Below are positions 2,760-64,000 of a stretch of 64,000 nt of DNA, piece after piece (within the stretch, counting starts at the first letter, position 1; each line of letters begins with the position of its first letter). The translations under genes were made by a program, and so were the position numbers. The stretch comes from Octopus vulgaris (Eukaryota), in assembly GCA_951406725.2 (NCBI GenBank), contig OX597819.1:75206001-75270000 (forward strand). Reading direction: 5' to 3'. Under the pieces are notes generated by a model. The model was not told the origin of the DNA, did no database searches, and saw only the letters and a program-made list of their open reading frames with translations.

Positions 2760-3330
2760 TAGTTAGTGGTGGCGATGACGGAGGAGGAAGAGGAGTAGAA
2801 GGAGGAGGAGGACAATTTACGCAGCGCAAAATAGTTCCCACACGAAGCGATACCATTTACTTGTCGTTGCTTTGGTCACAAATTATAAATGAACTCCTGA
2901 CAACATCTCTTTGGTGATTTCTTTTGATGTTTTTTTTGTGAAATCTGCGGTTGGGCTTAGGTTTGATTTTACTTCTCCGAAACGGTTTGTATATTTCAGT
3001 GGAGATAGAAATAAAGAGCCTCCGAACTATTTCTCGTCGAAACCTTCCACTCGTCCGGTGGGCGCCATCTTAAGTCACACGGAAGCACGGTCCAGGAGGA
3101 GTGAGGCGCCGGTGGACAGTTCTCTGCGTTAAATATTTCACACCTTTCAGGATCTGGTGCATTGGAAACATACTAAATAACTATCGGCGAATTGGAAGAT
3201 GGCGACTCAATTGCTTCCAATACGTTTTCAAGAGCATTTACAGGTAGGTTCTCTTGTTTAATTTAAACTGGCATTTTCATACCACTACAAAATTCAAGAA
3301 AGGGGGCGGCCAGGCGAAAAAAATGTCTGA
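2760..3330. promoter_or_regulatory. CpG/GC-rich promoter of CHC, possibly bidirectional
   Basis: Local GC/CpG peak; YY1-type motifs CGCCATCTT (3063-3071) and AAGATGGCG (3196-3204) in opposite orientation; GC box GGGGCGG near 3303-3309. Confidence 0.7.
3199..3243 (+). CDS. CLTC: Clathrin heavy chain, coding exon 1 (MATQLLPIRFQEHLQ)
   Basis: ATG at 3199 in aagATGgcg context; translation matches the CHC N-terminus (human MAQILPIRFQEHLQ); ends CAG|gtaggt, phase 0. Confidence 0.96.
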
Positions 3331-28858: not shown

Positions 28859-29066
28859 CTCCAAAATGTTGGCATTAATGCCTCCAATATTGGGTTTAGT
28901 ACCCTTACTATGGAATCAGATAAATACATATGTATAAGAGAAAAGGTTGGAGAAACTGCTCAGGTTGTCATTATTGATTTAAATGATGCCACCAACCCAA
29001 TTCGCCGGCCTATCTCCGCTGACTCTGCCATCATGAACCCAGCAAGTAAAGTTATTGCATTAAAAG
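28859..29066 (+). CDS. CLTC: Clathrin heavy chain exon 2 ([69 protein letters not shown])
   Basis: Polypyrimidine tract + tttcag acceptor, 208 nt, donor G|gtcagt (phase 1); near-identical to metazoan CHC. Confidence 0.98.
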
Positions 29067-40038: not shown

Positions 40039-40188
40039 CTGGCAAAACTTTACAGATTTTCAATATTGAAATGAAAAGCAAAATGAAGGCACATACTATG
40101 ACTGAAGACGTTACCTTCTGGAAATGGATTTCAGTCAACACAGTTGCACTGGTTACAGATACAGCTGTATACCACTGGGGTATGGAAG
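40039..40188 (+). CDS. CLTC: Clathrin heavy chain exon 3 ([50 protein letters not shown])
   Basis: ttttcag acceptor, 150 nt, phase 1-1, donor G|gtaagt; contains clathrin-box site residues (human Q89, F91, K96, K98). Confidence 0.98.
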
Positions 40189-40254
40189 GTAAGTCAAGAA
40201 TTTAGCTTTTCTCATGATTCCTTAATTTTTTTTTTTTTTTTTACTTTCTTTCTG

Positions 40255-40410
40255 GCTGCGTGTTTACTTTGCTTCTCAACCACATGGTTCCAGTTTCAGT
40301 CCTACTGCATGGCCCCTTGGACAAGTGTCTCCCACTAAAGCCTCAGGCTGACCAAATCCTTGTGAGTGAATTTGGTAGACAGAAACTAAGTGAAGCCTAT
40401 TGCGCGTGCA

Positions 40411-40441
<31 letters not shown>

Positions 40442-41045
40442 ATATTTATATATAAAATCAAAGGCGCAGAAACGACATACTTCAAAGGTAACGTAATCCA
40501 AGAGTAGAGTAAGAAATCCATGAACCGGGTACTCCAAATCGGTCAGAACGATGTGATATATATATGTGTGTGTGTGTGTCTTTGTTGTCCCCCACCACTG
40601 CTTCCCGACCAGTGTTGGTGTGTTTACATCCCAGCAACTTAGCAGTTCAGCAGAAGAGACTGATGGAATATGTACTGGGCTTCAAAACAATAGGTACTGG
40701 GGTCAGTTCATCATTTTGCATCCGTTGCCCATGATGGCATGGGTTGGACGGTTTGACTGGGCTGGTACACTGGAAGGCTGCGCCAGGATCCAGTTTGATT
40801 TGGCATGGTTCTTTAGCTGGATGCCCTTCCTAATGCCAACCACCCTAAGAGTGTAATGGGTGCTTTTACGTGCCACTGACATGGGTCTCAATTGTGTGAC
40901 ACTGGTATCTTGGTATCTACCACGACTGTGATTTTGCTTGGCTTGATGGGTTTTCTCAAGCACGACATAATACCAATGGTCTTGGTCATTGCTTCTATGA
41001 AGCCCAAAACTCAAAAGCTCAGCCACTTTGCCTCCATGAGGCCCA
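40255..41045. mobile_element. SINE (+, 40255-40710) abutting a minus-strand LINE/SINE tail (40710-41045)
   Basis: Head core CCACATGGTTCCAGTTTCAGTCC; then GCTGGATGCCCTTCCTAATGCCAACC. Confidence 0.75.
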
Positions 41046-41334
41046 TTGACTAAAATTCTTCAAGGTGGTGCCCTGGAATTGCTGCAGTTTAATGACAGAA
41101 ACCAGTGAAAGAGAAAAGACTAATTCTGTTATGTGAAGATTACATGTAAAACCATCACTTGATGTTAAAATTCAAAAGGGATAATGAAAAACAGAAAGTA
41201 CTTTTCAAGTTGACAATACCAAAGATTTGGAAGTGAACAGAATTTTCAGCTTGAATTTCAAATGCAAACTGAACACATGGTATTTAATATATTTAAATAT
41301 TTAAACCAATGAGGACGCAAGTTCTATAACAATA

Positions 41335-41535
41335 ACCAAGACCTTTGGCATTATGTTGTGCATGGGAAAACGACCCATCAAGCTGAGCAAAATCACAGTT
41401 GTGGCATGTAAAAGCACTCATTACACTCTCAGAGTGGTTGGCGTTAGGAAGGGCATCCAGCTGTAGAAAACCATGCCAAATCAAACTGGATCTTGGCACA
41501 GCCTTCCAGTGTGCCAGCCCAATCAAACCATTCAA
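41335..41535 (+). mobile_element. Tail module, near-identical inverted partner of 40740-40980
   Basis: CCATGCCAAATCAAACTGGATCTTGGCACAGCCTTCCAGTGTGCCAGCCC matches the rc of 40760-40809. Confidence 0.8.
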
Positions 41536-41744
41536 AACTCAAAAGGAGCTCAGCCCCTTCTCACATTTAAGGTAATTCTATGGCTGCTAGATCAATGATT
41601 ATTTATGAAGATTCAAAAACATTTTCCACAGTAAATGTAAAATGCTTCAGTATATTTAATCCAACAAATTAATATTTTTACATTGAGATGTTTTATGAAA
41701 ATTCCTTGTTAGATGATGAAAAGTTTAATTTTAATTTTTTTTAA

Positions 41745-43585
41745 CAGTCTGCTACACCATTGAGGCTGTTTTTGTAACACAATGCTTTGATGTTATTGAG
41801 AGATAAATATAGCTTTGATGAGTAGAATAAACTATAGTTCAGTAGTTTTGCAATTCTGGTTCAAAAGTTATGAATATTTTTTTTTGATTTTGAGGGAAAA
41901 GAAAAGAAAACAGTCATTAGTAGTGTATTTTATCATTTATTGAGGTTATCTTCACCACTATTGCCTGAAGTATCACTTTCACCATCACTGACTTCATCTT
42001 CAATGACTCTAATATGCTCATAAAGCTTGTTAAGATGTGAATTAACCATGTTAATGCATCCTTGGACTGTTTTGTTCTCCAGATTCTGAAATGATGTATA
42101 CAGTTGTGCCAGCACTTACCCGAAAGTGGTGTTTGTGGTGTACTGTCTTCCCACTTCTCCTTTGACAATGGCCCATATGAGCTCAGTCAGCTGCAAATCG
42201 GAATGATGCAGTGGAGAAAAGATGACTTCATGACCTCCTTCTCATGCCATGGAACAAACAACTGGAAAGACATGTAGTTGTTGTATTCACTCAGCTTTTC
42301 CCATAGCACACACTTCAGATCTCCTGCTTCAAATGGAATCTCTCATTCTTGACATGCCACCTGCATTTGAGCCACCTTCTACTATCCTTATGGTGTTGAT
42401 TCGGGGAAATTAGAATGACATTTGGCACTGTCCATCACAATGACAGTGTTACTAATTCTTCAGTCATCAAGAGCTTTGAAGAGCTTCTCCATCCACTCAA
42501 CAAAATTATGGTTAAACATCCCATGGTAGTCTTTTGTTTGTTTTCCTCCTACAAAGACACTTGATTTTCATTTTGGGCTTTTTTTTTTTTGGCATGCTGT
42601 ATTCAGTCAGCATCAATAATGGCTACATTAAACCGTATCACTTTGTGTTGAGTTTTCTCTTGGTCCTGCACATCGTTCAGATCATATAAGCTGTCATCAT
42701 GTTGAGCATAATTTTTGGTTATATAGCTTTCATCCATGTACACAATTTGTCTCTTCTTCACTGCATTGAGAGAAACTAATCTGACTGTATAGAGATCCCA
42801 CTTACAAATGTTCTCGGCTCGGAGCCTGTAGCACATCATTCCTTTCTTCTTTCCGCAACAGTATCCTTACGGAATCTTTGAACAGACCGCAGAGCTGCCT
42901 AGACTTGCTTTGGTTGATTGCGATCATTGATACAGCAGTCCATCACATCCTGAGCAACAGTCCTAGTGTGAGTCACCTGTTAGTCTCTGACAAATTTCTA
43001 GATTACGGAAGTCACAAGATGATCAGGAACTACCAAAGCCTTTGGATTTCAATTTCGAGTCATCTTCTGCTTTGAAATTTCTCCAGTCTCAACAAATTTG
43101 GTCTAGATTTCACTGCAGAGCTTATTACTTCAACCAAGGACATTCACAGTACAGCTCATGGCATCTGCATTCTTCATCATTTGCCAAAATCTCTTATTAC
43201 TGTGCGGTATAAAATGTTCATGATGAAATTTGGCTTGTACAGAGAGAATATCCAGCTTCTCCTCATTGGTAAGGCTCCAAGGTCAATTCGTTTTGATGAA
43301 ACTCTCCACAAATTCAAGAATTGATTATCTACAATCTTATACGTCTTGGGAGTGTAAGAAACATTTCCCTGTCTTTTGTTTCTTTTTGGATCCAAAACAA
43401 GATCTTCAACTTGGTCCTTTTCTTCATTTCTTTCCATAACTTTTGATCTGGAGAGGAGAGAAAAATAATTAATGGTGCAAAAGAAGGATCTCAACGAGCT
43501 CCATTCAACAATATAATGGGTTTAAGCTAGCAGTAAAAACTGACTGAGTAAAACACAAAATAGGCCTTAATGGTGTCACAGACTA
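41745..43585 (-). mobile_element. Decayed full-length IS630/Tc1/mariner transposon with DD82E-type spacing (Sailor-like)
   Basis: TIRs CAGTCTGCTACACCATTGAGGC vs rc TAGTCTGTGACACCATTAAGGC (18/22), TA on right flank; minus-strand motifs IVYMDESY, GGKQTKDYHGMFNH, VIVMDSAKCH, HHSDLQLTELIWAIVKGEVGRQY broken by stops and frameshifts. Confidence 0.85.
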
Positions 43586-43980
43586 TAAATAATACGGAGA
43601 AATGATGTAAATCATGATTTTAGTGACAATTTTTATTTTTAAAAAAAATGAAACACTTCAACAAAATTTCATTAACCTTTTTTTTAGAAGAAAGGCTATT
43701 AACTGGATAGGTAACTTTCTCCCACCTTCTCTACTTTTCCCTTCATGAACTTTGGCATTCCAAATTGCTAGTGCTTGTCTATGATTTCTATTGCATTATT
43801 GTGAAATAAATCTTTCTTCCTATCCCCTCTAGATAGAATAGTAGCAGTCTACCACTGGTGATTTCCACACAATTGAAATAGAACTCACCAGTACAAACTA
43901 ACTGTTGCATGCAATGGTGAATTATGCTGCCTATTGCTAATTCAGTGAATCGAGCTGTTTGAGATCTGTATACTTTAACC

Positions 43981-44009
43981 ATATATATATATATGTATGT
44001 GTGTGTATG

Positions 44010-44049
<40 letters not shown>

Positions 44050-44068
44050 AACACACATACAGAGAGAG
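43981..44068. repeat. Compound (TA)n/(TG)n microsatellite
   Basis: Direct reading. Confidence 0.9.
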
Positions 44069-44513
44069 AACTGTTCTTTCTACTCATTCTATTGAATTTG
44101 TCATCTCTACTTTCTATTTATCCCTAAAGAAATATTTTATACCATGATATTCCATAATGCAACATTTGCATTTTTAATTTAGTCAGCTTCTTTTTTTTTT
44201 TAATCTCTTGTTACCTCTTTTTGCATAGCTACTCTTTACAAGTTCTAGTCATTGGACTGTTGCCATCCTGAAGCACTGCTTTTAAGAGGATTTTCAGTTA
44301 ATAATATTCAATTGATAGAATAAGTTTCTCAGCTATTGTTTTAATTCAAAATGGCTTTTATTTATTTTATTTGATAGACTTCCTGCACAGTTTCGTTCTG
44401 CCAAACTTTACTTGCAAAGCAATGGTAAATCCAAAGCTACAAAGGAAAACATTTATCCCGATTGTCATACAGTAGAATAGAACTCTGGATTTTAGACTGC
44501 TTTAAATAATGTA

Positions 44514-45377
44514 TGTGGTGTGATCAATAATTATCCAGATTGTTCCCATAGTAACAAAGCTAAAGCATGCAGGGTGAAGCCGCTTGGCACAGATTGACCT
44601 TGAACTCTTGCACAAAGTTTTAACATTCTATCTCACTTCCACTGTTTACAGCAGTGCTTGGAAAGAAGGTGAGTAGTGTGTGATCGTCACATTGACCATG
44701 ACAGAGAAAGTTGAGCAGAGAATTTGCATCAAATTTTGCCAAAAGCTTGGTGATATCTGCTCAGAGGCCTACACAAAGTTTTCAAAATGTTTTCATCCTT
44801 CTCGACACAATCAAGATCTTGTGCAACTGAAAAACTGAGTGTCTTTTTGGTCAGCCGAAAGCAGTTTTGGCACAAACTTGGCAGACACGTCTCCTACCCA
44901 ACTTCAGCAATAATGGACTGAACTGAACCATAAATCTGCACTTCCTCTGATAACTCACAGATAGTGATTCAACTATTTCTCCTCACAGATGCATGCACAT
45001 CTGTGATGTTTTTCTCAGTTCTACTGGTTGCAGGTCTCCCAGAACATTCATCACAAACAACATTTTTTTTGGCCATCTTGGAAATGTCTGAACCTCTCGT
45101 ACACTTCTGTGTGGCTCATACACTCCTCTCCATACACTTTCTGCAACTTTCCGGTGGCCTCTGAGCAGGTATTGTCACGACAACTTTCTCTGTAATGATC
45201 AAGGCAATTATCACACGCAACACGCATTACTGCAAACAGCAGAAGTGAGCTAGAACGTTAAAACTTAGTGTGCATGTACAGACGAGTTTAAGGTCAATCT
45301 GTACCAAGCAGCTTTACTCTGTATGCTTTAGCTTCATTGCTATGGCAACAGTGCGGATACTTATTGATCTGTTCTCA
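44514..45377. mobile_element. Mariner-derived fold-back element with long inverted arms
   Basis: Arms TGATCAATAA.TATCC...GCTAAAGCAT...GATTGACCTT.AACTC inverted at both ends; mariner HTH start MTEKVEQRICIKFCQKLG at 44698 (+) and continuation KLQKVYGEECMSHTEVYERF on the - strand near 45150. Confidence 0.85.
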
Positions 45378-45834
45378 TCTATAGGCACAGGCATAGCTGT
45401 GTGGTTAAGAAGTTTGCTTTCCAACTGCGATTGAAGGGCAACTTAACCTTGCAAATTATGTGTTGACTTCACGAGTGCTGGTACTACATTTGCTGATGAT
45501 AGTATAGAGCTATTACATATTTTTACATTAATTTCAAGAATTGGTGTGGCTGTGCTGTAGGTACAGACTAAATATTTTATGAAGAATGAAAATGTATATA
45601 GTATAACTACTATTTATCTTTTTATTCTTCATAAAATATTGAAGTTTGCTGCATTGAGAACTGTTGTTGCAAAAGTCTTTTAATAACTGATTATGAAAGC
45701 TTGAAATTGGATGTTGCTTTTATAAATTTAAATGGTATTACAAGTTTACTATATCTTATATAGTAATTGGTTTTCCTTAATTTTCTTAACTGATTTATTA
45801 TGTAATGTTACAAAACCAACATAAAGCTTCATGT

Positions 45835-46085
45835 TAAATCACCTGGATTAAATCACCAGGCTGTCTGGTGCCGAGTCGACTCCACTGGCCACAGCATTTG
45901 CTTTATTCCCCTCATCCTATCGAGATTCTCCTCCATGTTGTTCCAAACATTTTTCTTAAATCATCTTCCTACCTGATTGAAGGTCTTCTGAGTGGTCTCT
46001 TCTATTTGTGCAGGTACCATTTGACAACCTCATGTCCAACAATTGTGAACCTTGCAACATGACTGGCCCATCGTAGCTTTGTGTG
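45835..46085 (-). mobile_element. 3' end fragment of a second RTE-like LINE family
   Basis: Minus-strand translation TKLRWASHVARF...KRPLRRPSIR*EDDLRKMFGTTWRR; tandem tail (TTAAATCACC)x2 near 45834-45857. Confidence 0.65.
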
Positions 46086-46961
46086 AAGTGAAGGACATTG
46101 TCACAGTATACCACCACACAAAGCTACAATGGGCTGGCCATATCAAATGTTCTTATTAAATGTTATACTGTAAGTTCATGATAGCTCTTTAAAATTTACA
46201 AGAAAGAAAAGAAAGCAAGAAGAAAAGGAGTTTACATTTAAGCTACTAGACTATTAACTACATGGTCCTTAAGTACAAATCTTAGCACAAGGTTCTACTT
46301 TATAGGCAAGGGGTTAGCAGTAATGTCATCTGGCATTGAAACGAATTCTTTCAACTGGCAAATATAAGAAAACCATGGAAACATAGAAAAATGGCAGTGA
46401 AACAGTTAATCTTCTTCTTTTTTTAATTCTGCAATTTCTCTTTTTAGGAATAGTGTATTCTGTTTCCAATGGCCACTGTTAAAGCTTAAAAATTATGTTC
46501 TCAACAGTTTTTAATTAGTCCAAAATTACTGCATTTTCTCTTTTAATTCATTAAACTTATTTATATTGTAGTCTAAAAATGAGTATTCTGTGAATTATGA
46601 CCAGACATCTCATCAACTTGAATATTAATATCATTTCTTCATTTATTCATCATTGTTTAGGTGCCTGATTTTATTTATATTTTTTCATATGTGAACACCT
46701 ATTGAACACTGACAAAGGAAAATGCTTATACTTTTTATTTCAGTCTCTTTTTGTCTACTTTATGAGGCAATATAATTCATATAATTTAAATTTTTAAGCC
46801 CTAAGCTTCTTGCACTTTTTTTCATTATTGCTTTTAGTGTTTTATTTTTTTTTTAATTCTCTCATTTTACATGATGTTTGGTTCAAACCAACAAAGTGAT
46901 TTCATAGAGTTTTGAAGTTAGTTCTTCATTTGTGAAACATGTGACATCTTCTTACTTACAG

Positions 46962-46979
46962 GACAAAATGGAGAAGCAG
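46962..46979 (+). CDS. CLTC: Candidate 18-nt alternative microexon of CHC (..ME-GQNGEA-GDSQP..)
   Basis: catcttcttacttacag|GACAAAATGGAGAAGCAG|gtttgt; multiple of 3, phase 1-1 as intron 3 requires, no stop; donor identical to that of exon 4. Confidence 0.6.
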
Positions 46980-49900
46980 GTTTGTTACTTTTCGTTAGTC
47001 TGGTTTTCCAATGATGCTTTCTCTTCTGCTCTCCTTCTTGGTTGGGTAAAATTACTTTCTTTGAACAACTCTTTCTATTAATAATGGCTTATGTTCTGTT
47101 CAAAGTTGGAATGCTCCCCAAAAAATTATGAGAATGCTTTCTCCAGTATCAATTAACTTTTTCTTTTAAACCTGATTTACTTTTTATCATTTCCTAAATG
47201 CATTAATCAAGCAATTTTTAAATACAAATTTTCATATTTATATTTACAAAAGAGCATTTATGAATTGTAAATTCGAGATTTAGATTATTTAGTTGAATTT
47301 TACAATATTGATGAATTTTTGTTAAATATTATGTGAAAATATGTCCATATTTCAAGATTAAATTTGAAGTGTATAATGTCCAATAACTGAACTAAGTTTT
47401 GCTGTTGACTTAGGGTGTTCAGTTTGAATATGTGTGTATGTATATACACACTCACACACACACGTGTGTGTGTAGGGTAGGGTATGTTGATCTGATCACC
47501 GTTTCAGTTAAATTACCAACTGGTTAAAATCTTAAGACTTCTGCAAGAAAGCATTCTTTATAATGTGGAGGAAATCTTGGTATAGAGAATGAATAATTCT
47601 TTGCAAGTTCTTCAGTGCCATCAAACTGTTTAAAAAAAAAAAATTTATTAAAATTTTTTTTTTTTGTGATAACTATAAAATGTTTATATTATGTAGGAGT
47701 TTTTTTTTTCTTCTCACCCCTTTTTTGTCTATACTTTCTATCAAACCTATTTATTATCCAAATGGTTTTATCCTTCATGTCATCAAGCTAAAAGTTTAGT
47801 TTAACCAGTGTGCATAATTACAGCCCCAAGCTGTAATTGACCTTTTCTTTATGTATGTAATTTCCATGAATTATTTTTTTTAACTAAATAAATATATTCT
47901 ATTGGAAAAAGAAAAACAAATACTTTTTATATATGTTTGAATATATTCTGATTTGGCCTTAAGATTTCCTTTGTAGTTTTTCATCTCTTCCATCATACTT
48001 TACTACTTTGTTACAAAAATAATTTCAGATATGTGTATGATAGACAGGGAGAGAGTATATAGATAACTTATCTGTATGATCTTTGTCTAATTATATTATT
48101 TTATTCCTTAAGAGAGAGCTTTTTTGATGCATAATGTAAATTTTATATATTTTTAATTAGTCTAAAGAAAAATGCTTTTATTCTTTATTTCCAAACAATA
48201 ACTTAATACCTACTTTAACTTAACATTAATTTGATTTGTTTTAGTTAAGAGATCTAAATTTTCTCTTGAAATAAAATTAGTATGACTGCTCAAATTAGAT
48301 GAATCTCTTTACACTTTTAGACTTAATTTTTGAACTTACTACAATGTTTCTCGGTTTAGTACTTGAATAAGCTAATTCAGATGTGTGCATGCATATTTAA
48401 CATGTACCAGCATGTGTATACATGTGCACGTTTTTTTTTTATTCTCTAAATTGCTCTTTATAAGTGGAAAGCTTATTTTGTTAATGTTTTGGCATTAACT
48501 TTTGAACTGGTATAAAGATTTTGCATACTGTAACAGTATCATTAGCTTGCACTAGAATTTAGTTATGTCTTTGAGAACTTTCTTGCTTTCCAAGAGTATT
48601 GCATAAAGAAATGATTATTTAAGTACATTAATGGCTTTAGTGTAAATTTAAATCCAATAACAAGTAGGAGTTTTGCATATATGGCTCAAATATATTAAAG
48701 CTATTGTTTTTGTAGATGGCTTTGACCTCTCCTCAGTATTTTTTAATTGTGGAGTGGGGGTATCTGTCAGAAAAACAATAACAGGCCTGTTAAGCCTGCA
48801 GTTGCTGAAAGTTTTAACTGAATTTATATATTAATATTCCTTATCAGAAGTATAGAAGTATTCCAGCTTGCTGTATTTCTTGTAAGATAATACTTGCGTA
48901 TTCCAACTAACAGTACTGTTGATGGCTCTTGCTTTAATGTTATACTGCATAAAGAAGTTGATATTTTTGGAGGCTGTTGATGATGTCACATTAGCCACAT
49001 CAGTTTTACTTGACCTACATTGGTTAGTGATCTGGAGGTATCTCTGTCCTATGAGAAATCTTTCGACTATAGCTTGTTCTTGTGTAGCAGTGGGAGGTGA
49101 TATAGTGTAGCTTCTGCATATTACCACCATGAATATGTTGTTACATGTATGCAGATTCTTTTGTTTTAGTTTCAGTTGGTACAAAATACAGAGGAATTTT
49201 TACAAAATCATTTTTAAAAGGATGTAATATTTTTATTTGTTATACAAATAAGTGGTAAGCCATTAGCTCCTATAGTTGTTTAGAGAAGTTAACCATATTT
49301 CAATTTTTATTTCAAAACTTTTCTTAGGCAGGCTTCTCACTTGTGCAGAAAAATTGTAAAAAATACATTGAGTAAAATAAATAGCTTTAATTATTCAGCT
49401 GCATTTTCTATAGCATTTTGAGTAGAATATTGGCATGAAACTTGTTCTGCAGAAGCTTATAAGATTGACTTTATTGCTTGTTTCACATGTTCTTCTTCAG
49501 TTACACACACCACCTTTAAACATCAAGAATTTTATGATTTGCTGGCATAGCTTTAGTTGCTTAATTATATTTGAATTAATTGGGCCCCTCTCTGATTTGG
49601 CCTCAAACAAGTTTTCTTTCTAATTAATATAGAAGTGTTGCTCATACTTCTATGGAGCATTTAACTAATCATTTTTATTTTATATTTTTAAATATTCTTT
49701 GAGATCAACTTTGGAATCTACAATAAAAAATTATGACTTCATAATGTGAAGTTGGCTGTTTAGTTGATTGTTGTCCATAATAATTAGTTACTGGATAATT
49801 ATATTATCAGGAACTTTTTTTTTTCACTCATTAGATCTTCACTAGAAGCAATTAGTGATTTTTTTTTTTTTTTTTTTAAGATTAATAGTAAAAAAATTCA

Positions 49901-50364
49901 CTGACTTTTGCATTCAGTTAAGGAATATTCCAAATGTTTGGAGATCTTGGCTTTGGCATGGTCTTAAAATTGGTTTGTTGGTTGTTTCTTGAACATGGCT
50001 TTTAGAGGGTTGTGAATTTTTTTAAAAACTGAATTGTTTAGCATGATTGCTTCAAATTTCTTTTTGTTTCTGATTAAATTTTTTGTTATTGTTCTTTATA
50101 CTTACATTTAAAAACCAGAATATATTCAAATTTATGTATAAAAAAAAATTTTCACCACTGGTTAGACTATTGGTTTTGAAGACAGTTGTTTTTGTTTTTT
50201 TTTCTTTCCCCTTCCACTTTTATAAATTGAGATTGTTTATCCCGCTCCATCATTTGAATGTTGTTTTTTTCTTTCTTTTTGTATTGCAATTTTGAGGAGG
50301 TAAAATAGTTTGGAATTGTAATTAAATTATACATGAACTGCAATGTTTGTTTCCATATCAAAAG

Positions 50365-50578
50365 GGTGACAAAATGGTAGGCATTAGAATGTTGCAGGGG
50401 AAATGCTTTGCAGTGTGTGATCCAGCTCTTACACATTAAATTCAAACCTTGATGAGGTCAACTAAGCCTTTCATCCTTTCAGGGTCAGTAAAGTACCAAT
50501 TAAGTACTGGAGTCAGTTTAATCAACTAGTCCCTCTTTACTCAAAATTGCTGGCTTTGTGCCTAAATTAGAAATGATT
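50365..50578 (+). mobile_element. Nin/Deu-domain-like SINE
   Basis: GAGGTCAACTAAGCCTTTCATCCTTTCAGGGTC..TAAAGTACC resembles the conserved Nin/Deu SINE domain. Confidence 0.75.
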
Positions 50579-53500
50579 ATTTTCATGTCCCCTCAATCAT
50601 ACTGATTATATACAGTTTCGCACTAAACTGATAGCTCCTTAGAAAAAAAAAAACAAAAAACATTTAAAATACCTTTCTAGCACAGTTAATGTTTTAGTCT
50701 CAGAAATGTCAGTAATTAAATACCAGTAAGCTCAGATGTTTTAAACAATTCTCACCACTATATTGTACTATTACATAAACCATAAAATTGTAGTCTTCAA
50801 TAATTTGATTTAAATGGAGTTAAAAATATTTTAATTGCAAGTACTATCTGACTGAATCAATCACTAATTGCACATTCTTTCTCATTTTTTAATCAGTCTC
50901 TAATTAGATTTATCTTTTATATATATATTCTTTTCACTGAATAAACCCAGCTAATTATAAACTTTTAGAATTGTCGTAAGACATCTTTATTTTGTCATAT
51001 TGAGTTTTGCAGGTGGATAATGATTGATTGATTCTAGTTTCAGCTCATGAGCTGTGGCCATGCTGCTTTTTTTTTTTTTTTTTTTCATATTTCTCACAAT
51101 TATTCTTAGTAATAATTTTAAGCATCTACAAATTAAGTTTTGTCAACACTTCAGCTATATTCTAGTTTAAGATTTTTTTTTTTTGAGAGCTGAGTTAAAT
51201 ATCAATATACACACATGAAACAGCTTTAGATTAAAATACCTGTGTATGTAACAGTGTGTGTATACAAACATAGAACTGCACTAGTTGTAATATTTGTTTC
51301 AATCTTTTCAGAGACTTGTGTTACACCCACAAGGCTTTGAGCAGAACACTGGACTGCTAAACATGGTGTTTTGGTCTAATTTGACAAATACCCCGAGGTG
51401 TTTTGAGACAAGCTATACTATACTTTAGTATAGTGATCAGGATACAAAACATTTGCAGATTTTTGCAAAACCTAGGCAGGCTAGAATTGAATCAACATGC
51501 ACACTTGAAACAACATTAAATTAAAATGCTGATATGTAATGTGTATACAAACACAGAATGGCACAAGCTGTAGTATTTTCTCTCAAAGAAATTTCTCAAA
51601 GACATGTTAAAAGCAAATCCTTGAAGTTTCTCTGATACACTGATATATTACTAAAATATTAGTATAATATTGTAAGTTTGGTACATTTTTCTCTTTTTTT
51701 TTTTTTTTAGTTTTAAAGAAATAACTTTTTTTATGCCATATCACTCCAATTGCATATTGTTGCTATTATGCAAAAATGTTGCAAGTTCAAAATGCTGCTT
51801 TTTCAGAAGACAAAAAAGTTGTTTCACCATTCCATAGCAAAACTGTTGTACTTGCACTTTGACAATTTTTGTTATCTTGGCATCTGAAGTAGCTGGAGAT
51901 ATGATAGCTTGATGAAAAGAACTAGCTATTGCAAGCAACAAAAGAATAAATAAATAAAAATAAAATAAAATAATGCAAAAAATGTATTTGGACATATGAC
52001 AGTTAAACATAATAGCAACGATATACTTTATACCCTTTTAAGCTACGTATAAGATTTGTCCTAAAAATTTTGAACCATTAAAACTTGTATTTGTTTTCAC
52101 AGTAGTTGGATATGGAAAATCTTCTGCAGTCAGATACAATTTAGTTATTTGCTTAATATAATCAGCTTAAAACTAACATGGTTTTTTTTTTTTCTGTTGG
52201 GGCAAAAATTATTTTAGCACTAATTTTAACCGATTATTTATTGAGTAGCTATAATTATTTAAAATTTAAATTAGTTATAAATTTATTACTTGTTTTTTTT
52301 TTTTCTGTTGGAACTATGATACCATCTGTTTATTACTGTTTGTTAGTTTATTCTCAAAAATTCTTAAATTTGATTTGCTCAACTAAGCCCTTTTCCTACC
52401 ATAAAGTTTAATACATAATCCACCAACAATTGAAATACCATTGGAACTAAATAAAATTGATAAATCTAATTCTGATATGAATTTTGTGGAAGAGTAATTT
52501 TCACTTGGACTAAATTATGTTGAACCATGTTTTTAAAACCATAAATATTAGATGCAAAAAAGATACAACTGTCTAAATCTCTAAATCTTTCCTTTTCTGG
52601 GAAATTTAAATGGTATCAAACAGTGAAGGTTTTAGATTATTTTCTTAGTTTTTGGTCCCACCCCACGCCACTTTTTGATTTATTTTTATACATTTTAATT
52701 CAAAACCCATTACTGCTTTGAAATCCTTGTGTAATGCCAACAGCAAACTTAGAACCTTTGTTATTCATTCAGAAAGATATTTTTTATTCTCCACTTTTTT
52801 TTTTTTTTAAACACTGAAAATATCTAATAGCTAGTATGTAAATTCCTTAAAAAAAAGATATAATTAGCTTAATTTGACTATCTATATAAATGTCTAGTGT
52901 TAATGTAGTTGAAATGAAAATTTATTTCATGTTAATGAACTTAATTCTTCCAAAAGAAAACCTATTTCTGAACTCAAATTGAATATTCTCAAAACAAAAA
53001 ATCTTTCTGAATTAATGTTCTAGTTTGAAGTGAGCACCCATTCTGAGTAAATGTTTTAGAACTCCAATTAACTTGTGGATTGTTATTATTAAATAGAACA
53101 AAAAGCATTACTTGTTGCAATCATGAATTCCTTTTCATGATCAAGAAACACTAATTTTAAATATATTAAAATTTAATTTCAGGTTGATTGCTGTGACATT
53201 TTAAATACTCCCCACCCCAATTTCCACCCATTGTTTTTTCTTACTACCACTATTCAGTTATTATATCCCTGCCAACAATTATTTTTTCCATTTTCAGATC
53301 AGTTTTGTGCATACTTCCTTTATATATATATTGTTGTCAAGGCTAATATATTGATCAATTTTTTAAGTTTGAAGATACTCATCACATGATTGTATCTGGA
53401 AATAACATCCTGTTTTAAAGCAGGAACATATGCAAACATTTTAAATTTGCAGATTTTTAAAAACCTATAGCAACAAGAAATGCAAGACACATACACACAC

Positions 53501-53676
53501 TCTAATGGAACACGGATACATCTGCAAATTTAAGTGTTTTGTATATATTTATAATTAGTGATTTCCAGTTAAATGTTCTAACATGAAGTAAGATTTGTAT
53601 TTGCTTTCCAGTTAGTGATAAAGTGCCTTGCTTTGTTATAAATTCTGATAAAATGCATGTGAACCTGACTTCTTAA

Positions 53677-54558
53677 CCCCTTGACGCCGGTATTACCTAA
53701 AGCATGCGAGACACTGCTCTGGTTTTTTATCTACTGAGGCCACACAAACGCAAGTGCCAACGAGCTTGCGTCTATTTACGTTCACCATTACAATAACATG
53801 GCGTTGTACATTTACGTCTACTGGTTTACGAAAATGAACTATGTGAAGCTATTTATCATAATGATATGCACGAGTTATTCTGCTCAAGTTAAAAAAATAG
53901 CTTGCATGTGGTACAACTCGAAACACGGTATTATGCAAAAGGACACATCACAGTCCAGACAATGATATCTGGTTTCATGCTTACGATGGTGTGAGGTGTA
54001 TACAACACATTTCCATGCTGGATTCTGTTTTTTTTCCGTTGGCGGTATGAAGCACAGGAATTGTCCTTATCAGTTAAGAAGCCAGTTTGGAGTCGGTCAG
54101 GTATGAGGACATCCATGCGTTCGGTAGTTGAGCAGCTCGGAAACTTCGATAATTTCATTTATCGGGCGTGATGACGAGCATAAATTCGCTGATGGAGGAC
54201 CAAAGCATGAACACGGAACTTGTAATTGATTTGAATACAATTTGAATTATGATGTGTTTTCACTGGAGACCGTTAATTTTATACCTCCTGTACCAATGCA
54301 CATGTATGTAAAGTATCTGCATGTCATTAGTCTACTGCTAGTCTCATGACTTTAACGTAACCTAAAATAGCTAAGATAATGCACGGGATGGCAAGCGCGC
54401 ACACCTCAAGAGATAAAGTACATGATAGCGAACGTAAACATACGTCAGCCGCTAAAAAGTCCATGATAGATGTGGGGCTCTACATTGTATATTTACGTTA
54501 ACCGTGGGTAGGCAAGCAAAAGTGTGATCACATATCTGCATCAACCGTTGTCAAGGGG
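53677..54558. mobile_element. piggyBac-like non-autonomous element (MITE), 882 bp
   Basis: TTAA at 53673-53676 and 54559-54562; TIR CCCCTTGACGCCGGT vs rc CCCCTTGACAACGGT (13/15); internal ATTTACGT repeats; CpG-rich. Confidence 0.9.
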
Positions 54559-55823
54559 TTAAATACTCAGCTGTCTCCTTTTTTGTTCTCTTCATATATT
54601 ATGCATATATTTTTTTTTAATGAAAACAATCCAAAGACATATTTTCTAAACTAATTTTAATAGAATATTTTAAATTATTTCTGGGATTAATGAGTTTTCT
54701 GTTGAAATTTGAAGTTAAACATTAAATTAACTTGACCTGTAGTTCTGAAGATTAATAAATATTCTCTTAAGATAGTTATACAAAATGTATCTTTTGCCCT
54801 TCAATAAAATATTTGTTTGCAATGTACATGGAAGAAAATTGAAAATCTTGCAATTTCAATCTGAAATTTAAAAAAAAAAATCCTCTTTCAATTTAGATTT
54901 CAGTGCCCCAGTCCTTGCTTGATTTCCAGTTCAGTTCAAATCCTGTTTTTGTATTTCATTTAAAAAAGAAAGAAGTTTTCTACAGTATGCAATGTTTTAG
55001 TAACTTGTTTGCATTAACACTTAGTTTTGTTGTCTGAGATTCTGTCTCCAGCTGGTGGGCTATGGCCTTGACTTTCATTTTCTGCTTGGTTTTTCTCTTT
55101 GTGAGATGTTTCAAAGGTGTTTGCTCCCTACTATTTTTTCTTCAACTTCTTGTCAATTATGATCGATGTCCACAAATTTATAAGCCTCAGTATTTTATTT
55201 ATATATATTAAATTTTATTAATTTCTTTTTTAGTTTATTTTTACAATGTTATCAGCACAAATCTGATACAACTCAATATTCATTCGTAAAAGTGCTTAAT
55301 CTATTACAATACATTGGCATAATACTATAAACTAGACTCCAAGTGATAGGCATAAAAATAAACAAGCAATACAAAAATAACCACTTACAGTGCTGCTACT
55401 TTTGCCAATGTCTAAATCCTAGAAAACATGTAATTTCTGTTAGTGTGTTTGATTAAGCTATAGTGACGAGTCATACACATATTGGTATTAAGCCCTGTCA
55501 GCTAACATCACATTGTATATGTTTTGTATGTTCCATAGATAAGTCACATGCCTGTGGTTTTTATATTTTCTTGGTAAAAGATGTAACTGTACTTAAGTAT
55601 ATACAGTAAGTCAACTTACCAAATAGTTTAAATTAAAATAGAAATTTTTTTCTTAAATGTTTTACTTGATAGCTGCTAAATTGAATAGTGCTTTTTCATT
55701 ACAATTTTTTAAGGGTCATATTTGTCTCTATTTTAGTCTTGTTTTTTAAACTCTGTCACTTTCATACATGTAACAATCAACAGCTCTAAATAATTTGAAT
55801 TCTTTTATCAAATACTTTTACAG

Positions 55824-55942
55824 GAGATTCTCAACCCCTAAAGATGTTCGATCGTCATTCAAGTCTTGCTGGATGTCAAGTCATCAACTACCGGACCGAT
55901 GAAAAGCAACAGTGGCTTCTGTTGATAGGAATATCAGCCCAG
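55824..55942 (+). CDS. CLTC: Clathrin heavy chain exon 4 ([40 protein letters not shown]); not in the ORF track
   Basis: ttttacag acceptor, 119 nt, phase 1-0, donor CAG|gtttgt; continues exon 3 in frame and matches CHC. Confidence 0.97.
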
Positions 55943-58134
55943 GTTTGTTAAACGCATTTCAACTCATCATATTGGTTGTGAATAAATATTATTTTTCAGC
56001 TGTATTTAAAAAAATTTTTTTTAATTTTAATAGATTTTACTAAATATCAGTATAGTTATTCAGCTATCTAATTTAAATTGTTAAAATTCTACAGTTACCA
56101 AAACACAATGGTCATTGTTTATTTATGATAATTATTCAGTTTCTCACTGAAAAAATTGTATTTCAAAATGAGAAGAAAATATTATTCAAGGACAACTGTA
56201 AGTCAAAGGAAAATATTAGAATTTTTATGTGTATGTTTGTGTGTAATCTCGGCATGTTTTTGGAGTATTCACTAATAAACTTCTTGGAATCTACTTTTGA
56301 TCGTATATAACTTGTGATCTGATTTTTCTTACATTCCTTTAGTTTGTATATTCAATTGTATTTGTAATATCCCTCCCAATTCATACTTCATTTAAAAATG
56401 AAATTGTTTTAAATTTTAATTTAACTCTGCAATAAGGCAAAAATAATTTCTAGTAGGGTTTTGTTTTTTTTAACCAAAAGTCTGATTGTGTATTTAGAGA
56501 AAGTGTATACTTAATCATAGAAGTGTATTTATCATAATATTCATTGACATTTCATTGTCAACTGATGAATTTGTTATTTAAACACTAGTTTGTTTGTTGT
56601 ATTTTGTTTTTGTTTTTTTTTTTCTCAATCTGAATGTTATTTCTGAGCTGGTGTCATCCTTCTAGTATTGAATTCTTCATTCTCAATTGACATTGGATCT
56701 CTCAACTGCAAAGTTTTACTCCAGCTACATTGCACTCACTGGTGTGCACTTGTAGCTAGGCAAGTTCATGTAACCTATGTTAGCCAGGCTCACTGTATTT
56801 GGGGTCCAGTATCTAATGAATCTGTAAAATTAAATGGTACAGATTTAGTTTGACATACGTACTAAGCTGTCCAAATTTTTCTCAATTTAATGTATCAGCA
56901 TTTGGAGTGTAAACAGAAACTGATACTATCTAGATAAATAATTTACTAATTTCTACAAAAGGAAATTAGGCTTTCCTTATTCTAACAATAGTTGTTTGAA
57001 TGTCAGTGATAACTATTATAGATGTTCCTGTTACAGATAAAGTATCTACTGGATTTTCAGACCCATATGAAGATTTGAAATCAGCACTGCATAAAATTCA
57101 TTAGAGTATTCCTGCTATTTACAGCTGTATCTATACAGACCCTTATTTACAGTTAAGTGGATTGTTCTAAGGAATGTTTGGCTTGGCCATGGACATCATA
57201 TAGAACCAGTGAAGAGGATATAAACCATCACTCTTTCAAATGTTTATCATACCTTATTGATTTAATCATGCAGATATGTCTCTATATCCAGAGGTTATTA
57301 AGTTGAAATATTTGTTTGAATAGAAAATTTGAAGATTAAATCTGTTAGCACGATGATGTATTTTTCTTTACTTTTCATTAAACAAACAAATATTCTAATT
57401 CAAGTCAGGAGATTGTGTGGGAAAAGGATTTTTATATCAAAGAATATAAATTGACTTTATTACTTTTGCCAAAACTTGTACAATTTCTTTGTCCACTTAC
57501 ATTAAGAAAACCAACTTTCATATTTTTATATAAGTTTATGATTAAACAATTTAACACTAATTACAATTTGCAATTTTGCACAATCTTTCTAATATTTGGC
57601 TGAGAAAATATATCATCATAACACATTTGTATGTAATGATTCTGTTCTTGCCATCCAAGAAAATGAAATATTTACCATGTCTTGTTCATATGAAGTCAAA
57701 CTTTCATTAAAAAAATAACACTTAGTATCACATTCTAATCATTAATCTGATGAGAAAATTTGATACTAAAACTTATTAAATAATAAACAAGCTTTTCTTT
57801 AAAAAAAAACAGTATTCTTTGGTTAGTCCACTGGTGAAACGTTTTTTGCAGTATTTGAAATTCAAATGTAAAGGAGGATGGTCAAATATCCTACTGGCCT
57901 GGATCTGCCCCATCTCTAATTTTCTAAAAAAAAAAGACTTTTCTCCTATTGAAATTTTTTTTTTAATCTAATTCTATATATATATTTGTAATGTAACCAA
58001 TTATTATACATTATACTTGAATATGACCAGAAACTTTACAAAGTTCATTTAAATTTTAAAACGTGTTCATCCAAAATAATTTATTTGTAAAGATATCTGC
58101 TGTTAAATTGATTAACCATTTTGCTTTGAGAAGG

Positions 58135-58289
58135 GCACCACATTAAAAGCACCAAGTACACTCTGTAAAGTTGTTGGCATTAGGAAGGGCATCCAGTCAA
58201 AACCATGCCAAAACAGACAAAATGATGCCTGATGCAGCTCTCCAGCTCCTGTCAAACTTTTCCCCCCATGTTAAATGATTATGATGATG
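58135..58289 (+). mobile_element. Tail module
   Basis: AAAAGCACCAAGTACACTCTGTAAAG...GGAAGGGCATCCAG...(GAT)n. Confidence 0.75.
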
Positions 58290-58619
58290 AAGGGAAAATT
58301 CAATCTTCTCTCAAATTTTCTTAATCCAAATGGCTTTGAAATTTTTCTTATTGTTAAAATAATTTTTGTTTGATACAGTTAGCTTTACATTAAAAATGCA
58401 AGTACACTAGTGCAGTTTTCCAATAACTCTAATTTTGATTCCTGTTACATTTGTTTTCCTAGCCTTTGTTGATGATATAAACATCACATTTTTCCAATAT
58501 TTCTATTTGTGATAATTTTGAAGCTACTCCAACATCTGTAAAAATAAAATAATTATAATGATAAGAAATAACAGTTAATGTACATGTATTATTTTGTGCT
58601 TTTATTGGTTTTATGCATT

Positions 58620-60024
58620 CATGGGGGAATTCAGTTAGAGAATGCATGGGTGAAAAGTCTCCCCAATGTAGGCGAAACAGAGGGACCTAGTACTATAGTT
58701 GACAGCAGTTTTATAGAGAAAGCAATTAAGGATATGAAGGAAGACAAAGCCTTTAGTCCATTACAAATTGCTACTGATATGCTCAAAGTATCTGGCAGTG
58801 TAAGGATATGGCCTAATTATTTGCATAGCCAATCAGGTTGTACAAGAAGCTGTCATACCCAGTAACTGATGTAGCCGCATTATAGACAGGGGTAAAGGAA
58901 ATAGAGATATCAAATTGCTGGACCAGGTCATGAACGTTACAGAAAGAGTTATTGCTCAACTCTTTTAATTAGGAAGAGAATTAGATTAGATAAGATGTAG
59001 TTTGGCTTTGTGCCAGTAAGAACTATTGATGCTCTCTTTCTAGTTAGGCAACTTCAGAAGTATTTAGCCAAAAGTAAATTGCTGTACATGGCATTCATGA
59101 ACCTAGAGAAAGCCTTCAGTGAAGCCTCTCATTCCCTGAACTGGTGGTCACTGTGGAAGCTAGTTGTAGATGAATAGCTATTGAGAGTTAGCATTTAATA
59201 CAGCAACAGCTTTAGTGCGTAAGTTTGTGTTCACTAGGGCTTAGTCCTTTCCTATTTATTACAATCCTCCAGACCAAAACAGGAGTTTTAAGACTGGGTA
59301 CTCATGAGATATCCTCTATACTGATGACCTTGTTCTTATAGCTGAATTTATAGTAGAATTAGAAAAGAAAAAAGCTCAGAGAGCTATTATTGCTGTTGGT
59401 AATGAAGGTCTCTCAGGATGAAAAGCAGTTTGTTTGATGCTTGTATGCAAACAGCAATGTTACATTGTAGTGAAACATGAGCTGTAAATGCAGAGGATAT
59501 GTGAGACTAGAAAAAAAGCAAAACTAACGTGTTCTGCTAGGTGTGCAGCATAAAGGAGTGCTGATCACCAAATGTGGCAAGGAACTATTGAAGAGGGAGA
59601 TCCAAGAATAAATGAGACAAAGTAATGAAGACCTCAGTTGTTGAGCCTCAGGGAAGAGATGACTGGCAGTTCACTGTGCTCAAGAAAATCTATCCATCTT
59701 AGCAAAGCATGGTTCTGTCTATGCTGTCCCTACAGTTCATCTCAGCACCCATCCTTCCATCACTGATCAAACTACAGCACTATTTCAGCTGTTGTAATTA
59801 TATGAGAGCAGAGATGCTACAAGTTCCCTCTCTCTTTGGAGTCTCCTCCCCTTGTCACCTACTCAGCATTCTCAATCTCATCTCTTACCACTGTGTTTTC
59901 CAGTGTATTTTTCTTTCACATTGGCCATCAATGTACTCCCTCCAGCTTTGTCACTCTCTTTCCATGTTCACACCTACTTACCTCTGATCTCCTCCCTTGT
60001 CATAGTGCACTCCTCCCTCTTCTT

Positions 60025-60067
<43 letters not shown>

Positions 60068-60690
60068 TCTCTTCACATTGTCTCCCTATTTCTCATCTGT
60101 ACAGTTTTATTACAATACTGCTCTCCAGCTGCTAGCCCATTTTCTATTGCCACTTACCAATTCCTGTTCATCTCTATCCTACAACCAAACTGAAATTCAT
60201 CATTGACCTCTCCTTCCTTGTTTACCATTCACATACATCCTCAAGTCTCACCATCTGTTGCTCTCACATACTCTCACAAATATACCCACCTGCCACTCCT
60301 ATTCCTCTGTCTCTATCCTCCCCTTTGAACCTCGAGGACACATCCTGACATCACTGCTCCATCATTTTCTTTTCTCTCTATTTCCTGCTATGATATTCAT
60401 GTCTCTCTGACATACTCTTGCCTCTCAACACCAGGTATTAAACCCCCTCCCTCAATACCACACTTCCACATAGCCTAGGTGTCTTGTGAGTTATTGGGCA
60501 ACTTCACCAGTGCTAGTGGAAAAAGAGCACCCAGTACACTCTGTAAAGTGGCTGCCATTAAGAAGGGCATCCAGCCATAAGACCATACCAAAGCAGGCAC
60601 AGGAACTCAATGCAGTCTTCTAAGTTGTCGGATCCTGTCAATCTGTTCAATCCATGCCAGCTAGAGAAATGGATGTTAAATGATGATTTA
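58620..60690 (+). mobile_element. Decayed RTE-type LINE (same family) with CT-rich 3' UTR and tail
   Basis: IEKAIKDMKEDKA, DIKLLDQVMNVTERV, FGFVP and LYTDDLVLIAE (YADD-like) remnants; ends AGAAGGGCATCCAGCC...GATGTTAAATGATGA. Confidence 0.8.
60026..60064. repeat. (CA)n microsatellite
   Basis: Direct reading. Confidence 0.95.
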
Positions 60691-63340
60691 ATGTCACTCT
60701 CATTGAAGTTAGTGAAATAAATATAATAAATGCACTTCCATATGTCCAAATTTTACAAACAGTTCTCTTTTATTACATCCTTAAAACTTTGAAGTTATTT
60801 TTAAAATGACATGTCTAGAAACTACATTTTCCTCACAATTTTATTAGTTTCTTATAAATTTATTATGGATCTTATTTGATGCTATTAATTTTTGTTTATG
60901 ATAGATCTAAAGTAGTTTTCTGATACCCTGTTTTGAAATTCAATTTTTCTCAAGCAAACATGAGTGGGGGTGATACATAGTTTCAGTATTGTGTATTTTT
61001 AAGAATTTATGCATACATTAGGGAAACATAGGTTTACTTGTTTTTGTTTGTTCTTTTAGTGGAACTCAGAAAAGAAATTTAATAACTAAAAATATTTTCA
61101 ACTCTTTTCATTTTTTGGCTGCATTTAGTTCTTCAATGTACACTTCTGACCCATAGATGTTCCTAATCTATTTAGTTCTTATGTGTTATTTTGCTTCTTT
61201 TCTTTTAAATGAAAAAATTGCTTTGGTAGCTTGTCAACTTGCATTGACTAAAGGTTTTCTGCTTGTCTTTTGAAGGTCTCTTCTAATTCCCAAGTTAGAC
61301 ATGGTGTCTATGCATGTGATTTCAGTTCATTTTGTGTTATTGTTTAGTATATCCTGCTTTCATTGAATGTATGAGATGGTGATTACATGTCACTCAGTTT
61401 GATATATCTAACAAACTTTCAGGTTATAATTTCATGTACTATCAGTAACGCTCCCAGTCTTAATTTAAAACTTCGTTAACTTTTTTTGTTTCTGTAAAAT
61501 CTTATTTTAAACCATTAATAGTTTCAAATGCATTTATCTTTTTGTTATTGCTTTATAACATTTTTGTCAAGTAACTATAATCTGTAAAACCCAATTCAGA
61601 ATTATTTTTTATTAAAAAATTCATTATAGAAAATTTAATTTACATAACCAAATTTTTTCTTAAATGTTAGCTGCAGCTAAACTAAGTACTAATTCATTTA
61701 AAAGAATTAATACCATGTAGAATATAACATTTTTTTTACATCAAGGTTTTGTTTCATGTAAAAAAAAAAAAAATAGAGCTAATTAGTTATTCAAATTTCA
61801 ATGATTCTTTTTTTTTTTTATGTAAATAAATTACAGTCTCCCCCCACCCCCATCCCCCCAAAAATAGAATCTGGTGAATGACTTGAAACCAGTACTGACT
61901 TTTTAAACAGCATATTTATGGTACTACATCAATTTTGTAAAGTAATTCATGTTTAAACAATTTTTCAAAAGTACTTCAACATAGACCTAAAAAAAAAGAA
62001 ATAGATAATTCAAATTGCTATTGAATTGTAATTATTTTTAAGGAAAGAATTTACAACAATAATTCAGTATTCAAATCAGTCATTGTTAACATGTTGGTAG
62101 TAAAAAAAATCACACCAATCAAATTCTAGTTTCATTTTTATATGAATAAATTCACTAACACATTTGTTAAAATTATGATGTTGTAATTTTGAAATGTTCA
62201 GCCTTGTTGCTGAAAGCATTTAATAAATGTAAATTGACTTGAATTAGCAGAAAACTTTTCCCTTTTTTTTTGCCCCACTCAAACTTATATCTTTCAGTCA
62301 AATTCATTTTACATATTAGATTTAAAATGCATTAATTCACACAAGAGAAAGAATCCTATTTAAGCTATACATATTGATGCTTGCATTTTGAAACCATTTC
62401 ATATTTGGGTTTTGTTCTGTTAAAATTTAACCATTTATTATTTTTTTTACATAAAAGCCTTCCTAATCTGATTTTTATTTTATTTTATTTTAAGCTGTCT
62501 GGTAAGCACTCCCAATGATTATTGTTTGAAATTAAAAAGATAGTAAAAATATTCTGTATTACAGTTGAAGTGAAAATTTAAATTGCAACTCTATAATTGT
62601 AATTTAGAACCTAGTCTAATTGAGAATGGTTTTTAAAATTCTCATGCTGATGATTACTTGCGAATAAATTCTCAAGGTTATTTGACATATAAACATTGTT
62701 TTAGTCATGTAGTTCCAAATTTTTTTGGTTCAGATGAAAGTTTAACAAAAAAGTTCTGCAATCTATTGATTTAACTCCTCTATATTGAGTGATACAACAA
62801 TATTTGAAGAGGATTTTTTTCTTTTCTCAAACTGTAAAAAATAATTTTATTTATATATTGCAGTAAATGGGGGTGGGGTGAGCAGTAGAATGGTTTAGAG
62901 TTGCTCAAGGGATGTTTTCACTATTTCTTTTAATTGATCAATTATAATAATCAGAAATGGAGAGTGCATTGAGACATTTTATAATTTAATTAGTTCTGAG
63001 TTATATTTTGTTTTAAACTGTAGTTTTAATTTTAAAGTTTCTTTTATATTATATTCATTAAATGTTAATTTTCATTTATTGTAAATTAAGTTTATATTAT
63101 TAACTGTTAATTTAGAAAATTTAATTTTTACTTAATCATATAGCAAAAAGAAGCTCTCAAATAGCTGCAGATTAAAACAATTAACTTTATTATTTGTTGA
63201 TTTTTTTTTTTTTAAACAGCCAATTCACATCATTAGAGCTATCTTATAAGTGAAGGATTGATCACTGTACTTCGTTAAACTAATTTAAAACAAATATCTA
63301 AAGATTTATAAGAAATTGGAGTTCTGTTATTTGCTTTTAG

Positions 63341-63379
63341 GTAAATGCTGAAAACTCTGCTGTGACACCACCAACTCAG
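63341..63379 (+). CDS. CLTC: Candidate 39-nt alternative exon of CHC (VNAENSAVTPPTQ after ..ISAQ)
   Basis: ttctgttatttgcttttag|GTAAAT...ACTCAG|gtaaat; 13 codons, phase 0-0 as intron 4 requires, no stop; GC-richer than flanks. Confidence 0.6.
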
Positions 63380-64000
63380 GTAAATATGAGGAGGTTGGAC
63401 AGGGGAGCCTTCCAAAGCCTTCTTTTTTCCAAAGGATGCCTACCTACCTTACCTGTCCTAGCTATGAAATTTGGTATCACTCCAGCTATGTTCAAGCTGA
63501 TGTTTATAATCCCATACTAAATTAATGAAAAAAAAAAATTATAGATATTTTATGTTAAATGCACATTAGTCTTTCAATATATTTACATTGAGTATTACAT
63601 AAATTTACAATAATAGATAGCACTAATTCAAGATGAAATTTTGAAATATCTTGGTTTTGAAAGAAAATTTACTACTGCCATTAAGATTAAATGTTATTTT
63701 AATGAATTCAACTAACATTTGCCACTTGGAGATATGTTGGCAACTTTTTGAAAGTAAAGACAATGCCATAAGGTTGTGCAAGAAACTATGAGTAATGTGT
63801 TTGGGCAGTTATTCATTTAAAACAATTTAAGTTCTATTTTTTAAGCCTCAATTTTTTCTTTTAATTTAGTTTCCCTGTATTACCAACTTTTTGCTTAATT
63901 TTGCCTTTCAATTCCCTTTTGATATCATTTAAAATTTTTTCTTTTACATAAATTAGAGTTTATTAAATCTAAAAATGCTTGAGATCAGATCTATTATTTT

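Follow-up and report, generated by a model that had tools for sequence, protein, structure and literature searches.

Two alternatively used microexons in the terminal-domain region of the octopus clathrin heavy chain gene

Very short exons have been described before in clathrin heavy chain genes. The closest precedent for the exons reported here, at a different junction, is HsaEX0015816, a retina-specific microexon of human CLTC, 3 nucleotides (nt) long and located at K83/A84, for which a change in adaptor binding has been proposed (Ciampi et al., bioRxiv 10.1101/2021.09.08.459463). Vertebrate muscle regulates two further Cltc microexons, 31 and 33, which lie towards the 3′ end of the gene; exon 33 alters the C-terminus (Blue et al. 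2026, PMC13676984). More generally, type I convergent alternative exons show recurrent gain at equivalent introns across bilaterians (bioRxiv 10.64898/2026.09.05.749416), and the neural microexons that are targets of the eMIC domain combine UGC motifs, weak acceptors and long AG-exclusion zones (PMC8797185). Here we analyse a window of 64,000 nt from Octopus vulgaris (contig OX597819.1, positions 75,206,001 to 75,270,000, forward strand), which contains exons 1–4 of the clathrin heavy chain gene together with two microexons, mx1 and mx2.

Like HsaEX0015816, the octopus exons are frame-preserving and belong to the terminal domain, and mx2 shares with it a position in a b-c hairpin, as far as blades can be counted on a predicted model. 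The vertebrate exon, however, adds a single residue at K83/A84 (blade 2, clathrin box), whereas the octopus exons add 6 residues after E134 (blade 3) and 13 after Q174 (blade 4, on the W-box side) and can be combined. Orthology was considered and rejected, since K83/A84 is one junction upstream of the site of mx1 and two upstream of that of mx2. The muscle-regulated microexons 31 and 33 also diversify a single clathrin heavy chain gene, as in octopus, although they do so at the 3′ end and not in the terminal domain.

The identity of the gene is clear. Exon 2 of the window matches, at 100% identity, O. vulgaris and O. sinensis proteins annotated as clathrin heavy chain 1, and a chain of 34 exons, drawn from the window and 200 kb of downstream sequence, reproduces protein P0001 (1,698 amino acids) exactly. 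The product carries Pfam domains PF01394, PF09268 and PF00637, and its model reaches a template modelling (TM) score of 0.93 against PDB 9f8t, in keeping with the clathrin heavy chain layout of a seven-bladed terminal propeller, a linker and CHCR repeats. A protein search of the Octopus genome returned one gene (one match, two candidates), indicating a single copy.

Both microexons are real. Each is no longer than 51 nt, has canonical splice sites, keeps the frame and contains no stop codon; under a stricter definition (3–27 nt) mx1 still qualifies and mx2, at 39 nt, is too long. When the in-frame AG..GT candidates of 9–51 nt in each host intron were ranked using splice-site matrices from the 31 constitutive introns of the gene, mx1 came first of 349 and mx2 first of 380. 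The peptides of both were found in database isoforms, and inclusion as well as skipping was seen in transcripts for each. A preliminary description of the window had proposed two in-frame exons in consecutive introns, each with the right phase, and the phases (1-1 and 0-0), the database isoforms and the top intron ranks bear this out. Exon 3, mx1, exon 4 and mx2 all have AG/GT ends, and exon 5 starts 10.6 kb downstream of mx2.

The isoforms are denoted by two signs, the first for mx1 and the second for mx2. RefSeq proteins of O. sinensis comprise P0001 (+/+, isoform X1), P0121 (−/+, X2) and P0002 (−/−, X4); the octopus exons are, in other words, already annotated in three of the four combinations. 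Argonauta P0122 is +/+. All four combinations were found in a 90% cluster of cuttlefish proteins that includes Sepia pharaonis and of whose 16 members 15 were listed. When its 11 full-length proteins are weighted by contigs, 63 of the 75 contigs were −/+, 7 −/−, 3 +/− and 2 +/+, so that mx2 was present in 65 and mx1 in 5. These are spliced transcripts, because the source contigs measure 5.3–6.3 kb for a gene of 34 exons. The earlier expectation of up to four in-frame variants is thus realized in the cuttlefish cluster, while the Octopus records returned show three.

In O. vulgaris, two studies (runs X21 and X22) yielded contigs of 5.2 kb, presumed to be RNA, which agrees with their matching exon 4 only; they aligned without mismatch to window positions 55822–55944. 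In a search of sequencing runs, none of those listed was on record as RNA, which is neutral as evidence. The last three bases are AAG in exon 3 and CAG in mx1, while mx2 opens with GT and exon 5 with CAA. The contigs overhang exon 4 by two bases on both sides (AG upstream, GT downstream), and mx1 was therefore skipped and mx2 included. From where the contig alignments end, rather than from junction rows, we infer that O. vulgaris uses the −/+ form in the two runs. The features of the window are collected in Table 1.

Table 1. Exons of the clathrin heavy chain gene and associated features in the 64,000-nt window
Feature	Position	Strand	Length and phase	Remarks
Exon 1, coding part, ATG to donor	3199..3243	+	45 nt	Exact match to P0001
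Exon 2	28859..29066	+	208 nt, phase 0-1	3′ junction K84/A85 corresponds to the vertebrate retina microexon site; no octopus insert seen
Exon 3	40039..40188	+	150 nt, phase 1-1	Residues 85–134; apparently constitutive; five propeller strands including clathrin-box residues
mx1	46962..46979	+	18 nt, phase 1-1	GQNGEA after E134; minor form; coleoid cephalopods only
Exon 4	55824..55942	+	119 nt, phase 1-0	Between mx1 and mx2; chain matched to P0001
mx2	63341..63379	+	39 nt, phase 0-0	VNAENSAVTPPTQ after Q174; often major form
UGC motif	63332..63334	+		9 nt upstream of mx2; position typical of eMIC/SRRM3/4 targets; weak hint
Repeat-free gap with mx1	45370..50437	.	5.1 kb	By self-matching; not exceptional for the gene
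Longest repeat-free gap, start	60689..64000	.	16.3 kb, runs past exon 7	Holds mx2; not more conserved at kb scale

In-frame skipping of exon 3, which had been suggested as a source of additional variants, was rejected. Among 312 fetched proteins spanning residues 120–190, a set biased to molluscs and isoform-rich clusters, it occurs only in P0007, a gappy O. bimaculoides model that also lacks residues 617–708, 1057–1087 and 1100–1102; loss of the exon would remove five propeller strands and the clathrin-box residues T87, Q89, F91, K96 and K98. Two O. vulgaris models, P0123 and P0242, begin at M96 within exon 3, as a result of either truncated annotation or an internal start. A third octopus microexon at K84 was likewise discarded: no octopus protein carries one, and the donor of the best candidate in intron 2 scores 3.1, below the constitutive minimum of 5.2. 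The lengths of exons 3 and 4 (window 40039–55942) sum to 269 nt, which we take to be the length of one human CLTC exon; if so, the intron hosting mx1 is absent in humans.

Octopods and cuttlefish separated ∼270 million years ago. Between Octopus and the cuttlefish cluster, 12 of the 13 residues of mx2 are the same, the single change being N to I. In mx1 the length and the position are kept and one residue in six is conserved between octopods and cuttlefish (GQNGEA, GQNGEP and GPDDHT).

Across the 312 proteins, three exon junctions account for 130 of the 136 inserts in the terminal domain: 83 at Q174 (the mx2 junction), 42 at K84 (exon 2/3) and 5 at the mx1 junction (6 with P0007), with 6 elsewhere. 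Inserts at Q174 range from 2 to 18 residues, have little sequence in common between clades and are mostly paired with an insert-free isoform; they occur in mussels, oysters, scallops, abalone, Gigantopelta, nemerteans, sea urchins, amphioxus and sea spiders, covering four bilaterian branches. On these protein comparisons, invertebrate bilaterians have repeatedly acquired or kept insertions at the mx2 junction. Some short inserts starting with Val may, from their sequence, reflect shifted donors rather than cassette exons. No Q174 insert was seen among the vertebrate proteins listed, the lungfish (P0096) and snake (P0118) models being broken there, nor in many gastropods and sea stars among the proteins listed. 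Inserts of the mx1 type were seen in coleoid cephalopods only. The lineage specificity that the preliminary description had assumed consequently holds for mx1 and fails for the mx2 junction.

Tandem double inserts at Q174 were observed in amphioxus (P0340, P0341), scallops (P0152, P0158) and oysters (P0021, P0026, P0198), and Branchiostoma lanceolatum carries an identical 9-residue unit in zero, one or two copies. At the K84 junction (window 29066/40039), heterodont and unionid bivalves and Lingula have inserts of 8–11 residues, and GSGS is found in all 15 amphioxus proteins listed (K84-insert proteins: P0044–P0046, P0049, P0179, P0184–P0189, P0191, P0212, P0243 and P0332–P0345). The bivalves with a K84 insert show no Q174 insert. 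The ALK-D-A insert at K84 is present in fish, frog and lungfish proteins.

Structure prediction had been put forward earlier as a check on the isoforms, and for the form with both inserts the propeller is preserved in the model. The AlphaFold2 model (residues 1–383, alignment of 63 rows) has a mean predicted local distance difference test (pLDDT) score of 88, TM scores of 0.90–0.93 and a root-mean-square deviation of about 1.1–1.5 Å relative to clathrin terminal-domain crystals, so that the fold is predicted to remain intact. The only segment with pLDDT below 50 is 182–193, within mx2, between strands 171–182 and 194–205. With strands counted from blade 2, the model puts mx2 in the b-c hairpin of blade 4 and mx1 (135–140) in the c-d loop of blade 3; the two exons are thus predicted to add 13 and 6 residues, respectively, to surface loops of the propeller. 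In propellers, b-c loops lie on the adaptor side and c-d loops on the opposite face.

At all 16 binding-site residues checked, octopus numbering equals human plus one. The mx2 junction is therefore flanked by I170 (PMC8805674) and V177 (PMC11543927) of the W-box, octopus I171 and V178, and comes one residue ahead of N175, which belongs to a proposed site 5 (PMC8805674).

The preliminary description had pointed to two repeat-poor stretches, 46.3–50.3 kb and 60.7–64 kb, as signs of constrained splicing flanks. Both indeed contain 0% self-matching repeat, in a scan over 264 kb that low-copy repeats escape, and show single-copy depth in a DNA run. This is not peculiar to mx1, however: the gene has 9 repeat-free gaps of at least 4.5 kb, and the gap around mx1 (5.1 kb) is shorter than that around constitutive exon 4 (6.6 kb). 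The location of mx2, 2.7 kb inside the longest repeat-free gap of the gene, mildly favours the earlier proposal. The constraint itself was not supported at the kb scale, divergence to another species being 160/3,534 (4.5%) in the claimed stretches versus 156/3,394 (4.6%) elsewhere (p=0.91), as sampled in the 8 long pieces listed for a single DNA run (X19), which leave out the bases adjoining either microexon.

Two mobile elements were noted in the window. At window 53673–54562 lies an element of ∼880 nt with short terminal inverted repeats and TTAA on both sides, missed by self-matching and piggyBac-like in its features; it is probably a recent insertion, because it has almost no cover in the DNA run of the other species (depth 0.85). 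A high-copy element with inverted ends (opposite-strand joints) occupies about 44530–45370, and a frame fragment in it resembles the start of a Tc1/mariner transposase.

What the two exons do can be approached from their placement. We consider it reasonably probable that mx2, when its regulated inclusion takes place, provides a flexible flap next to the W-box face and so alters which adaptors are preferred, and that mx1 serves as a spacer on the other face. The mx2 peptide would lengthen the b-c hairpin of blade 4, between I171 and V178, by a disordered segment that could partly shield the W-box face or add a contact, and its conserved T-P might be phosphorylated. A 13-residue loop at this place is likely, judging from the model, to change adaptor binding at the neighbouring W-box face. 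The mx1 exon, conserved in length but not in sequence, would probably be a spacer on the opposite face, with its splicing controlled separately. Several observations weigh against this interpretation. The assignment of mx2 to the adaptor (‘top’) face and of mx1 to the opposite one rests on general propeller topology; the +/− form is absent among the Octopus records returned; and the four combinations come from short-read contigs and not from phased single molecules, although, if assemblers follow the majority path at each exon, as we assume, each combination must exist on some molecules. The divergence of mx1 (GQNGEA versus GPDDHT) and the varying length and scant similarity of Q174 inserts between clades also fit a set of tolerated insertions, that is, passengers in loops that accept extra residues at no cost, with isoform choice of little functional effect. 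The same alternative gains from the minor status of mx1 (5 of 75 contigs), from flanks with no added conservation at the kb scale and from the clades listed that have no Q174 insert, vertebrates included. We nevertheless judge it improbable: mx2, often the major form, is nearly unchanged in sequence from octopods to cuttlefish, mx1 has kept its exact length and position, and inserts concentrate at a pair of equivalent b-c hairpins next to binding sites, not at the other terminal-domain junctions.

A further proposal, which builds on the synaptic role suggested in the preliminary description, concerns regulation: the eMIC domain of SRRM2/3/4 would turn on both exons in neurons for synaptic vesicle recycling. 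The genome does encode an eMIC-type domain (PF15230, 32.6 bits, cut-off 27), and the vertebrate terminal-domain microexon is retina-specific (bioRxiv 10.1101/2021.09.08.459463). With the neural eMIC/SRRM3/4 microexons (Torres-Mendez et al. 2022, PMC8797185) the octopus exons share short length, frame preservation, weak 3′ splice sites and a trafficking gene as host; mx2 has in addition a UGC near its acceptor, a weak hint. The UGC at −9 of mx2 has a counterpart, at −20 to −4, in only 1 of 31 constitutive acceptors, and constitutive acceptors scoring lower number 2 of 31 for mx1 and 3 of 31 for mx2, with a matrix trained on those 31 acceptors themselves and so favouring them. Yet TGC occurs in 724 of 4,158 intronic 17-nt windows (17%), mx1 has no UGC within 100 nt, mx2 exceeds 27 nt, and the AG-exclusion zones, long in eMIC targets, are not long here (17 nt for mx2 and 38 nt for mx1, constitutive median 42). 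Moreover, mx2 is the usual form in the cuttlefish cluster and mx1 leans to contigs without mx2 (3 of 5; Fisher p=0.015, from samples that lack independence), which suggests that the two exons are under different regulators. Joint control by the neural programme appears rather unlikely to us. An exon elsewhere in the genome (L022, G000:C25:37317492-37317626) codes for a stretch rich in SR together with the beginning of an eMIC-type domain (PF15230, over the cut-off), and likely belongs to the SRRM2/3/4 gene.

Returning to the flap reading, a wider version of it can be offered tentatively, as a possibility with the odds against it. The b-c hairpins of blade 2, bordering the clathrin box, and of blade 4, bordering the W-box, would be bilaterian-wide splicing switches, with microexons gained or retained by different phyla at both junctions so that each adaptor site is gated separately. 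In coleoids, a third junction would turn this into a code of four states on their one clathrin gene, regulated by tissue, and a flap open to phosphorylation would lie over the W-box. S/T-P is also found in abalone and amphioxus inserts. At Q174, non-orthologous or rapidly diverged exons would occupy an equivalent intron in distant phyla, as described for type I convergent exons; the main text of that source mentions neither clathrin nor CLTC nor Chc, and its supplements, which cover octopus, amphioxus and sea urchin, may list these exons (bioRxiv 10.64898/2026.09.05.749416). In a literature search sparse on subscription journals, neither the octopus exons nor the Q174 hot spot turned up as previously described, and the latter is apparently undescribed in invertebrates.

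It is still asked why the clathrin terminal domain bears several adaptor sites that look redundant. Isoforms that occur in nature with a longer loop next to one of these sites are ready-made probes of its role, and the four octopus terminal domains can be directly expressed and compared. If inclusion is switched between tissues, these exons would reveal a way to vary the clathrin coat in an animal that has a large nervous system but a single clathrin gene, a parallel to the retina microexon of vertebrates.

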